A model generated the notes under the pieces. The model had not been told where the DNA came from. It did not search any database and saw only the letters and a program-made list of their open reading frames with translations. From IMG/VR virus record IMGVR_UViG_2693429524_000006: a DNA stretch of 7,351 nt; one strand, written 5' to 3'. Shown here piece after piece: positions 100 through 1,057 of the stretch. Source of the stretch: a virus (lineage: Duplodnaviria; Heunggongvirae; Uroviricota; Caudoviricetes). Both the position numbers and the translations under genes were made by a program. Position 1 is the stretch's first letter, and every line of letters starts with the position of its first letter.

Positions 100-107
100 C
101 GGGCGGT

Positions 108-134
108 GGCACAGGGATGTGCCTTTAAATAATT
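108..134 (+). terminator. hairpin with interrupted T-tract after ant A; weak or partial intrinsic terminator
   Basis: GGCACA-GGGA-TGTGCC (108-123) followed by TTTAAATAATT; same element at 2886-2912 after ant B. Confidence 0.3.
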
Positions 135-143
135 CTGTACAGA

Positions 144-172
144 TTGCAGACTGGGGGTGAATAGCGTACTAT
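144..172 (+). promoter_or_regulatory. sigma70-like promoter TTGCAG-N17-TACTAT for cargo gene 328..963
   Basis: -35 at 144-149, -10 at 167-172, 17-bp spacer; identical element at 2922-2950. Confidence 0.5.
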
Positions 173-223
173 TACCTCACGGGTGATCCATAGCGATTAG
201 GCACCGATACAGGAGGAGCCCAC

Positions 224-256
224 ATGAGAAAATTTGACGAGTACGAAGGCGTTTAA
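224..256 (+). CDS. 10-codon upstream ORF (MRKFDEYEGV) with near-consensus Shine-Dalgarno; possible leader peptide
   Basis: AGGAGGA at 211-217, 6 nt before ATG 224; TAA at 254-256; no counterpart in the paralogous slot after ant B. Confidence 0.25.
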   Translation: MRKFDEYEGV

Positions 257-270
257 CATTCGGATAGTTC

Positions 271-289
271 ATTTACCCTAATGGTAAAT
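271..289 (+). promoter_or_regulatory. inverted repeat ATTTACC-N5-GGTAAAT (operator-like or RNA hairpin) in the leader of 328..963
   Basis: perfect 7-bp arms; belongs to the recurrent TTACC-N5-GGTAA motif family. Confidence 0.4.
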
Positions 290-327
290 CCCGCTTAAAG
301 AAGCATCTATATATTATGAGGTGATGT

Positions 328-963
328 ATGCCACAACAACTGCTGAATCCGGCAAAGGTAACTGAGGTTTTCGCTCATCTGAACGAAACTCCAGACAACC
401 GCGCCCTGTATTCAGAGTTAGTGAACGGCAACGATGTCACATCTGATGTCAAAGGCGTTTCTCTGGCTCCTGGATACCGCGTTGTCCGTGTAGACGATCG
501 TAAGAAAGGCGAGATTCCACAGGCGCACTTTGAACTGTCATTGATAAATGACCTCACCGAAGAGGTAGTGTATTACAATCGTGTCATTATCCAGCCTGAC
601 AGCTATCTTAACTGCCGTCCTGTCACGCAGATATTGGTATGGAGAACCCAGAAGCCTAAGCATCGTGCTGTGCTTCATGATTTCGCTGGCATCATCTTCA
701 TGAACTACCTCTTGGAACGGTACGATATCATCGTGTCTGATCGCAACCAGACTCATGAAGGCATGTCGTTCTGGCAGGCTCGCATGTATGACGCACTGGA
801 ACTTGGCCTCCACCTCTATGGTTACGACATGATGACATGCGAGCTGATAGAGATGAATAACGAGGAAGAGCTTGAGAAAGGTGAAACCTGGTTGTGGGGT
901 GATGCGGAAAACTTCCAAAACAGATTGGCCATAATTTCAAAGCATAAGCTGCCAATAAAATAG
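328..963 (+). CDS. hypothetical protein, 211 aa, no family recognised; cargo gene in the slot downstream of antirepressor A
   Basis: ATG 328 preceded by GAGGTG (318-323); 211 uninterrupted codons; TAG 961-963; intrinsic terminator immediately downstream. Confidence 0.8.
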   Translation: MPQQLLNPAKVTEVFAHLNETPDNRALYSELVNGNDVTSDVKGVSLAPGYRVVRVDDRKKGEIPQAHFELSLINDLTEEVVYYNRVIIQPDSYLNCRPVTQILVWRTQKPKHRAVLHDFAGIIFMNYLLERYDIIVSDRNQTHEGMSFWQARMYDALELGLHLYGYDMMTCELIEMNNEEELEKGETWLWGDAENFQNRLAIISKHKLPIK

Positions 964-971
964 TTCTTTAA

Positions 972-992
972 GCCCGCGACGCGGGCTTTTTT
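972..992 (+). terminator. rho-independent terminator
   Basis: GCCCGC-GAC-GCGGGC stem-loop followed by TTTTTT. Confidence 0.8.
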
Positions 993-995
993 GTG

Positions 996-1057
996 TCTGC
1001 GGATTCCCGCCCGGGCGGCGGTGGCATTCGTTAAAAACAAGGCCGCAAGAGCGGCCT
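996..1057. repeat. 62-bp direct repeat, copy 1 (partner 3940..4001)
   Basis: near-identical to 3940..4001, differing in the hairpin loop (AAGA vs GAAA); contains 12-bp palindrome CCGCCCGGGCGG (1007-1018) and GGCCGC/GCGGCC hairpin (1041-1056). Confidence 0.7.
1031..1056 (-). terminator. intrinsic terminator for 1056..1784 (minus strand)
   Basis: on the minus strand GGCCGC-TCTT-GCGGCC followed by TTGTTTTTAA; hairpin abuts the TAG stop. Confidence 0.55.

Follow-up and report, generated by a model that had tools for sequence, protein, structure and literature searches.

A variable accessory-gene slot behind the antirepressor modules of a phiV10/TL-2011b-type Escherichia coli prophage, with a candidate GNAT-like protein among its cargos

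In this study, we focus on a stretch of 7,351 nucleotides (nt) of viral DNA (Caudoviricetes; IMG/VR record IMGVR_UViG_2693429524_000006), hereafter the window, and in particular on positions 100-1057, where a small transcription unit encoding a protein of 211 amino acids (aa) follows the 3′ end of an antirepressor (ant) gene. The window corresponds to the immI-like (secondary immunity) region of an epsilon15-like Escherichia coli prophage of the phiV10/TL-2011b type, in which the ant module is present in triplicate and two of the three ant genes (A and B) carry such a unit behind them. A first-pass annotation, made from the sequence alone, had proposed that the region is a recombinational hotspot holding different cargo in its two copies, and comparison with homologous prophages bears this out: the region is well supported as a true hotspot for accessory genes, belonging with morons or accessory regions, that is appended to P1-type immI antirepressor modules. 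The explanation that we favour for the whole, with reasonable though far from complete confidence, combines an immI slot, exchange of cargo through the flanks, gating by the phage repressor, and a GNAT-fold protein as the cargo of the first copy (cargo A).

The evidence that carries this finding lies in what stands behind the same flank in other genomes. A scan of IMG/VR for the exact promoter flank returned 37 viral contigs/loci, and these, together with the slots of the window and three loci from E. coli genomes, contain three cargo types: the 211-aa gene (8 instances, one of them in the window and two in the E. coli genome loci), a pair encoding a 59-aa protein and a YafO-like protein (24 instances, including the second slot of the window and one E. 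coli locus), and a gene for a 210-aa protein, a paralogue of the 211-aa protein at 30% identity (10 instances; E = 2e-17). When the last 36 nt of the ant coding sequence served as a looser anchor, at least 120 loci were retrieved and their downstream sequence was clustered, giving at least 10 unrelated cargo sets behind the same flank and at least about 130 loci in all. The sets comprise the 59-aa and YafO-like pair (at least 30 instances), a leader with DUF4760 (at least 20), a 55-aa protein with a protein of about 150-190 aa (at least 12), a 69-aa protein with a 287-aa membrane protein (at least 11), the 211-aa gene (at least 10), a 108-aa protein with a second YafO-like protein of 170 aa (at least 9), a 113-aa protein with a DUF2335 membrane protein (at least 4), a 72-aa with a 125-aa protein (at least 3), and a 74-aa protein with a 115-aa membrane protein (at least 3 + 1), along with the 210-aa paralogue, for which the count of about 10 comes from the exact-flank set. 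At least 8 loci, including the phiV10 genome contig, are empty, and because such empty alleles exist, the slot is an optional insertion. The breakpoint in every filled allele among the matches listed falls right after the GGTAA(A) of a palindrome considered below, and most cargos end at a terminator of the form GCCCGC-N4-GCGGGC-T6. Of 5426 complete E. coli genomes, 328 (about 6%) contain the 87-nt flank and 13 the 211-aa gene; this one cargo is found behind three antirepressor types (AntA, BRO-N, and ORF6N).

Direct and inverted repeats of the ant module are present in the window (D1, I1-I5), and the two copies of the slot could accordingly be explained by one ant module having merely been duplicated locally, with an unrelated insertion or deletion afterwards and without any general hotspot. 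Such a view is contradicted by the ten or more cargo sets and some 130 or more loci spread over many genomes, by breakpoints that are identical among them, and by the assortment of cargo independently of ant type, and we consider that it can practically be set aside.

The slot can be followed in detail in its two copies, where genes, promoters, and terminators lie on the plus strand unless noted and palindromes and bidirectional hairpins are given no strand. The 3′ end of ant A (1-99, stop codon at 97-99) was recognized by the in-frame identity of its shared C-terminal domain with the C-termini of ant B and ant C; by domain scan, ant B (2182-2877) joins a BRO-N domain, and ant C (4051-4707, minus strand) an AntA domain, to that shared domain. 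Approximately 280 nt of C-terminal coding sequence are common to the three genes, inverted at ant C (repeats I1 and I3). The stretch of about 80 bp behind the ant A and ant B stops, previously described as nearly identical, belongs to a larger direct repeat of 184 nt (1-184 versus 2779-2962, 97% identity), of which 100-184 is non-coding. In the alignment, similarity between the copies is lost entirely past 184/2962, and they continue, as had been proposed, into different genes, namely the 211-aa gene in one copy and the open reading frames (ORFs) of 59 aa and 181/190 aa in the other.

Module A begins with the left copy of a short direct repeat, CGGGCGGTGGCA (100-111), which brackets the module and is present as a single copy in empty alleles. 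A small hairpin, GGCAC-AGGGAT-GTGCC (108-123), noted earlier behind the ant stop, is indeed kept after all three ant genes, but it folds no better than shuffled sequence (z = -0.8). The candidate cargo promoter (144-172), weak and of the sigma-70 type, consists of TTGCAG (144-149), a 17-nt spacer, and TACTAT (167-172), is kept before many cargos, and is laid out like the ant promoter at 1869-1898. An operator-like palindrome, TTACCTCACGGGTGA (172-186), abuts its -10 hexamer, and a second, perfect palindrome, TTACCCTAATGGTAA (273-287), lies just before the ribosome-binding site of the cargo, both having been located in the palindrome count. Between the two palindromes stands an 85-nt leader (187-272), delimited by comparison of loci, whose mini-ORF, MRKFDEYEGV (224-256), is preceded by an AGGAGG ribosome-binding site. 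Strain SCU-125 has one palindrome and no leader, and the leader is also found before the DUF4760 cargo in 41 further E. coli genomes; it is an independent mosaic piece. In the DUF4760 version, the leader is followed by a strong terminator-like hairpin (z = -4.3) with an attenuator-like look. An RNA-element reading of the post-ant hairpin and of the 187-330 leader was rejected, their stability not exceeding that of shuffled sequence.

Cargo A itself (328-963) encodes the 211-aa protein, a stand-alone member of the phrog_1349 family with a predicted GNAT fold, and is closed by an intrinsic terminator (971-995; terminator scan, z = -2.7 versus shuffled). The downstream flank of module A (996-1057) holds the last 39 nt of a deleted gene for a 53-aa protein, within which the right copy of the direct repeat is located (1012-1026), and a bidirectional terminator hairpin (1040-1057). 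The upstream flank of module B (2878-2964) repeats the order of direct repeat (2878-2889), hairpin, promoter (2922-2950), and palindrome (2950-2964). It is followed by the two genes of cargo B, the first for the 59-aa protein (phrog_6685; 3025-3204), in the position expected of an antitoxin, and the second for a YafO-family toxin-like protein of 181 aa counted from the ATG at 3179 (3179-3724), and then by an intrinsic terminator (3723-3747; terminator scan), the gene for the 53-aa membrane-anchored protein (phrog_14503; 3817-3978), which is part of the conserved downstream flank and contains the right direct-repeat copy of this module (3956-3970), and a bidirectional terminator hairpin common to ant C (3984-4001; terminator scan). 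The two cargo terminators, rightly called paralogous by the first-pass annotation, are 92% identical and were both called as intrinsic. The ribosome-binding context that it held to be shared by the two cargos is, however, not part of the flank, since other cargos use different sites and the sequence is an ordinary Shine-Dalgarno element.

Further downstream, a 62-nt repeat (996-1057 versus 3940-4001) is 97% identical between the copies, as reported, but does not constitute a separate element. The downstream flank of copy A equals that of copy B minus 192 bp (3748-3939), with most of the 53-aa gene lost, and the repeat is therefore the 3′ end of this gene plus the original ant terminator, which is its distal part. 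The deleted and intact configurations of the 53-aa gene are each found with several cargo types in other genomes. In filled alleles, CGGGCGGYGGCA is present at both module ends as a direct repeat of 12-15 nt, at the positions given above, whereas empty alleles, the phiV10 contig included, run from the ant stop through CGGGCGG..GGCA into TTCGTTAAAA and the terminator and keep one repeat copy. Judged from these sequences, either the whole unit would have been gained with respect to the empty allele, or the empty allele would have arisen by deletion.

Cargo would be exchanged between prophages by recombination within the conserved flanks, the left one being the ant C-terminal coding region with the promoter and palindrome, and the right one the terminator with the 53-aa gene. 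Homologous recombination in these long flanks is the probable mechanism, and the boundaries are sharp probably because selection keeps the promoter-operator and the terminator intact. A different mechanism, site-specific exchange at the TTACC-N5-GGTAA palindrome or at the CGGGCGGYGGCA repeat in the manner of integron-like cassettes, would suit the location of the cargo breakpoints, all immediately 3′ of the palindrome, the contrast between the two-palindrome leader of the window and the single palindrome of SCU-125, and the 12-15-nt repeat that brackets the whole module and is reduced to one copy in empty alleles. Yet neither the window nor the neighbouring genes yielded a recombinase gene or domain, and the palindrome is scattered at promoters genome-wide, including the immunity region, which is the behaviour of a regulatory site. 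Moreover, the cargo ends downstream at a terminator, with the palindrome only upstream of it, and selection for a working promoter-operator and terminator accounts for the sharp boundaries, so that we regard site-specific exchange as quite improbable and retain homologous recombination.

The palindrome is also the key to the proposed regulation of the slot. The TTACC-type repeat of the first-pass annotation proved to be the palindrome TTACC-N5-GGTAA, which occurs six times in the window (starting at 172, 273, 1805, 1898, 2950, and 4980) against 0.18 expected, a count reached by none of 200 shuffles. At the cargo A promoter, TACTAT is followed by TACC... (167-186), and the cargo B promoter shows the same arrangement of TACTAT and palindrome (2945-2964); at the promoter of isrK, C4, and ant B, TTGATT-N18-TATCAT is likewise followed by TACC... 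(1869-1912), the ant C promoter is the mirror image of this arrangement, and another palindrome (1805-1819) lies in the leader of a 242-aa gene. All palindromes of the window adjoin a -10-like hexamer, and their position relative to it is the same at ant and cargo promoters. The complete TL-2011b genome contains 14 palindromes against 0.87 expected, with two on each side of gp10 (four in all), which encodes an HTH_3 protein in the repressor position, beside a divergent cro-like gene; the remaining TL-2011b sites lie before int, gp14, gp25, and the small terminase gene and before the ant genes, the cargo, and a gene for an 85-aa protein. Upstream of the Dickeya homologue of cargo A (89% identical), TAGGAT is followed by TTACC-CATAA-GGTAA. 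The palindrome is most likely the operator of the main helix-turn-helix (HTH) repressor of the phage, and the dispersed sites suggest, by analogy, a P1-like multi-operator immunity network in an epsilon15-like podovirus, the C1 repressor of P1 being known for its dispersed operator network. In a phiV10-type phage, overexpression of the repressor blocks lytic growth (PMC9782041).

The enrichment and position of the palindrome would place the cargo promoters in the immunity-repressor regulon, in which case the cargo would be off in a stable lysogen and, once infection or induction has taken place, on at the same time as the antirepressors and early genes. An operator at this site argues against constitutive moron expression in the lysogen and in favour of expression early in the lytic cycle, the timing expected for host-takeover or anti-defence genes. 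Several points weigh against this interpretation. The assignment of the repressor to the palindrome is made on position and enrichment only, the repressor gene lying outside the window; the TTGCAG-N17-TACTAT promoter, conserved as it is before many cargos, matches the consensus at 7 of 12 positions and was not called by the promoter scan; and the intact orphan copies of cargo A on the chromosomes of Erwinia, Photorhabdus, and Enterobacter point to a role of use to the cell, a poor fit with lytic-only expression.

The main rival to repressor gating holds that the cargos are classical lysogenic-conversion or defence morons, expressed from the prophage and protecting the lysogen through abortive infection, exclusion, or toxin-antitoxin activity, with the palindrome providing no shut-off. 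The repertoire does look defence-like, with YafO-like toxins behind small upstream partners, DUF4760, DUF2335, and several membrane proteins of small size; every unit is equipped with a terminator and a candidate promoter to itself, and cargo B is of lower GC content (0.375); the 211-aa family, besides persisting as intact chromosomal orphans, occupies typical moron positions in other prophages. On the other side, every cargo promoter has an operator-like palindrome directly at its -10 hexamer, and the ant promoters, which are necessarily silent in a lysogen, show precisely this arrangement. Furthermore, no PADLOC-DB 2.0 defence model meaningfully matched the 211-aa protein or 11 other slot cargo proteins representing 8 cargo sets, a result that tells against the defence-moron account and also against the explanation that we favour ourselves, and the earlier suggestion of defence or anti-defence cargo is accordingly kept here as a conjecture. 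We regard the classical-moron account as a serious but unlikely alternative, and repressor-gated expression remains favoured for this phage.

Morons, reportedly a concept of Juhala and Hendrix, and phage accessory regions nevertheless provide the closest parallel in architecture, as both they and the present slot are optional units between conserved phage genes, with a terminator and, in the slot, a candidate promoter of their own, and both combine conserved flanks with highly variable, mostly unknown cargo and with empty alleles. The slot differs from them in that its cargo promoter carries an apparent immunity-repressor operator and in that expression is probably tied to derepression instead of being constitutive in the lysogen. 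The accessory-region concept has been set out by Silas et al. (bioRxiv 10.1101/2023.04.06.535777). Accessory slots of variable content, antirepressors under C4 control, and GNAT folds are each already known; in the literature searched, we found no description of this hotspot, its cargo catalogue, or the 211-aa family.

The antirepressor modules to which the slot is appended can be classified with some precision. The slot flanks are approximately 97% identical to E. coli phages TL-2011b and phiv142-3 and to related epsilon15/phiV10-like prophages, and in complete E. coli genomes the region sits between the tailspike gene and the internal-virion protein genes. Rfam models identified isrK and C4 antisense RNA upstream of ant B (1936-2134, plus strand) and of ant C (4757-4956, minus strand), with C4 (RF01695) scoring 77.7 and 61.2 bits against a gathering score of 45, and isrK 77.9 and 67.7 against 50; the a1/b1 target model fell just under its threshold (45.1 and 37.6 versus 46.7). 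The isrK/C4 control module is duplicated in inverted orientation (repeats I2, I4, and I5). In P1/P7, the immI operon comprises a C1-controlled promoter, c4 antisense RNA, icd, and ant. The control of ant B and ant C is of the P1/P7 immI and Gifsy-1 isrK-anrP type, the isrK-orf45-anrP control of Gifsy-1 having been described previously (PMC4825925). The likeness extends from the isrK and C4 models above threshold upstream of both genes to a repressor-operator-like site overlapping the promoter in the window, and operators are scattered over the genome in P1, as operator-like sites are, by our count, in TL-2011b. There are also clear distinctions: the phage here is an epsilon15-like podovirus and not P1, its ant module is triplicated with differing N-terminal domains (BRO-N and AntA), and an extra accessory unit is appended behind the ant gene.

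The protein encoded by cargo A had been left as one with no recognizable motif, and this stands at the level of sequence models, but it belongs to a large family and a GNAT-like fold is predicted for it. It matches phrog_1349 (PHROGs, function unknown) at E = 3e-78 and has 94 close homologues in Escherichia, Salmonella, Dickeya, Serratia, Klebsiella, Plesiomonas, Erwinia, Yersinia, Xenorhabdus, and Photorhabdus, every one of them labelled either hypothetical or "phage protein". When 1.84 billion representatives were searched with a profile, the result was 910 clusters (50% identity) at E values up to 1e-3 and 397 at 1e-10, and most of the 150 clusters listed are about 200 aa long and matched as one stretch. 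A tblastn search of 50,697 phage records gave 4 weak matches of at most 32% identity, and consequently no isolated phage carries the 211-aa protein. The gene stands alone, with no conserved neighbour, in seven contexts: in the same region of an epsilon15-like prophage (Dickeya), inside a myovirus tail module with large intergenic gaps (Yersinia), beside the integrase of a P2/186-like prophage (Serratia), near hsdR (Plesiomonas), and as an orphan between ihfA and btuE (Erwinia), beside ssb (Enterobacter), and at two different loci (Photorhabdus). Because it is alone in all of them, it has no conserved partner and is not linked to a core function of the phage; nor does it show homology to structural or replication proteins. 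The gene is thus untied to any core role, whether in podovirus, myovirus, or P2-like prophages or as a chromosomal orphan, as the hotspot view had anticipated.

An AlphaFold2 model built from a 68-sequence alignment reached a pLDDT of 86.2 and a pTM of 0.82. Foldseek searches against the PDB agree with a GNAT fold at low TM-scores (0.33-0.45), and searches against viral models returned uncharacterised phage proteins first (TM about 0.7) and then NAT_SF/GNAT proteins. The residues conserved family-wide are N24, Y82, Q101, W105, R106, D138, Q141, T142, G145, F148, W149, A156, Y164, and W190, and W105, R106, D138, Q141, T142, G145, F148, and W149 appear, on the predicted secondary structure, to gather where beta4 and beta5 end and alpha4 begins. 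This is the region in which GNAT proteins hold acetyl-CoA (coenzyme A, CoA). On these grounds, the 211-aa protein very probably adopts a divergent GNAT-like fold, while its possession of acyltransferase activity is a tentative proposal that we hold to be somewhat more doubtful than not.

Much in the sequence and structure pulls the other way. Scans of the 211-aa protein against Pfam, NCBIfam, and PADLOC gave no match; a Pfam scan of the 68 aligned homologues and 10 distant members gave noise only, with no match to a GNAT model; and sequence searches of the PDB with the single sequence, the 68-sequence profile, and a 99-sequence profile gave no meaningful match. Canonical motif A (Q/R-x-x-G-x-G/A, in the beta4-alpha3 loop) is absent by eye: the strand at 99-106 is followed by WRTQKPKHRAVLHD, without Gly-x-Gly/Ala, and the family consensus reads WR-x11-GL. 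The best structural match is the ICL2/Rv1916 domain, which is non-catalytic, CoA-binding, and regulatory. Compared with the GNAT superfamily as represented by NatD/Naa40, Hat1, AAC(2′)-Ia, and the ICL2/Rv1916 C-terminal domain, the protein therefore differs in lacking both a sequence-model match and motif A, in the two N-terminal helices that precede its sheet, and in the low TM-scores. As a separate matter, neaT (PMC3573123) is an unrelated membrane acyltransferase.

A GNAT fold in such a setting may also recall the GNAT-type toxins of toxin-antitoxin pairs (TacT, AtaT, and ItaT), which acetylate charged tRNA. No antitoxin gene accompanies the 211-aa gene in any of its seven contexts, on which ground we reject this identification; in addition, the protein is longer than TacT/AtaT/ItaT-type toxins (211 versus about 150-180 aa), its closest structural matches are other GNAT classes, and it has no Pfam Acetyltransf match, all of which makes a toxin very improbable. 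Under the divergent GNAT-like reading, cargo A would bind acyl-CoA and modify a host or rival-phage target, or alternatively it might act as an inhibitor that binds a CoA-like ligand, and in both cases it would take part in conflict between phage and host or between phages. A more ambitious version, in which the slot serves as a repressor-gated store of about a dozen uncharacterised one- or two-gene conflict effectors firing with the antirepressors and the 211-aa protein is a GNAT-derived acylator of a host-defence or rival-phage target, is speculative and, in our estimation, unlikely.

Cargo B is, on its sequence, a putative YafO-like toxin gene behind a small partner gene. Its second gene scores 26.3 bits with Pfam YafO_toxin (PF13957) against a cutoff of 25, a small margin, and RefSeq likewise names its homologues as YafO-type; the 59-aa ORF overlaps the toxin-like start by 26 nt and matches only phrog_6685, of unknown function. 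The pair resembles the YafNO type II system in that the second gene passes the YafO_toxin score and the small gene overlaps its start in antitoxin style. Unlike that system, it has a 59-aa partner without detectable similarity to YafN or any Pfam family, a toxin-like protein longer than the 101-position YafO_toxin model, and a location behind a putative phage operator.

Several neighbouring genes complete the picture of the region. Between the two slots lies the accessory gene whose leader carries the palindrome at 1805-1819 (1056-1784, minus strand); its 242-aa product (phrog_6762) has an N-terminal membrane helix, as judged by eye, and C-terminal Cys-rich repeats with a weak resemblance to endonuclease VII, HNH, and Lar-like zinc ribbons. 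An antirepressor fragment of 115 aa with a truncated P22_AR_N domain (5142-5489, plus strand), ending near a 30-nt palindrome (5414-5443), appears to be what is left of a P22-type arc/ant module, which related prophages retain intact, and a 98-aa predicted membrane protein (phrog_21905; 5490-5786, minus strand) is encoded between this remnant and the internal-virion protein gene. A gene for an 85-aa protein adjoins the tailspike gene outside the window (4659-4916 and 4562-4822 in two related loci) and has its own upstream palindrome; its product is a stand-alone ant C-terminal domain (43% identity over 74 aa, E = 2e-16), and this protein could modulate the antirepressors.

Variable slots with conserved flanks are the most productive places to look for new phage defence and counter-defence genes, and the present slot is found in about 6% of complete E. 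coli genomes with at least 10 cargo sets, none of which is represented in current defence databases. Its apparent control by the immunity repressor leads to a testable prediction of when the cargo genes act, and the 211-aa family, which is large, spread over several genera, and unannotated, gains from its GNAT-like fold a biochemical starting point in acyl-CoA binding and target acylation. If the acylator proposal were true, it would add a new family of approximately 900 clusters and a new enzymatic mechanism of anti-defence or exclusion, one also domesticated in the form of chromosomal orphans. The slot itself, though not conceptually surprising, is a real, if conventional, source of candidate genes for the conflict between phages and their hosts.

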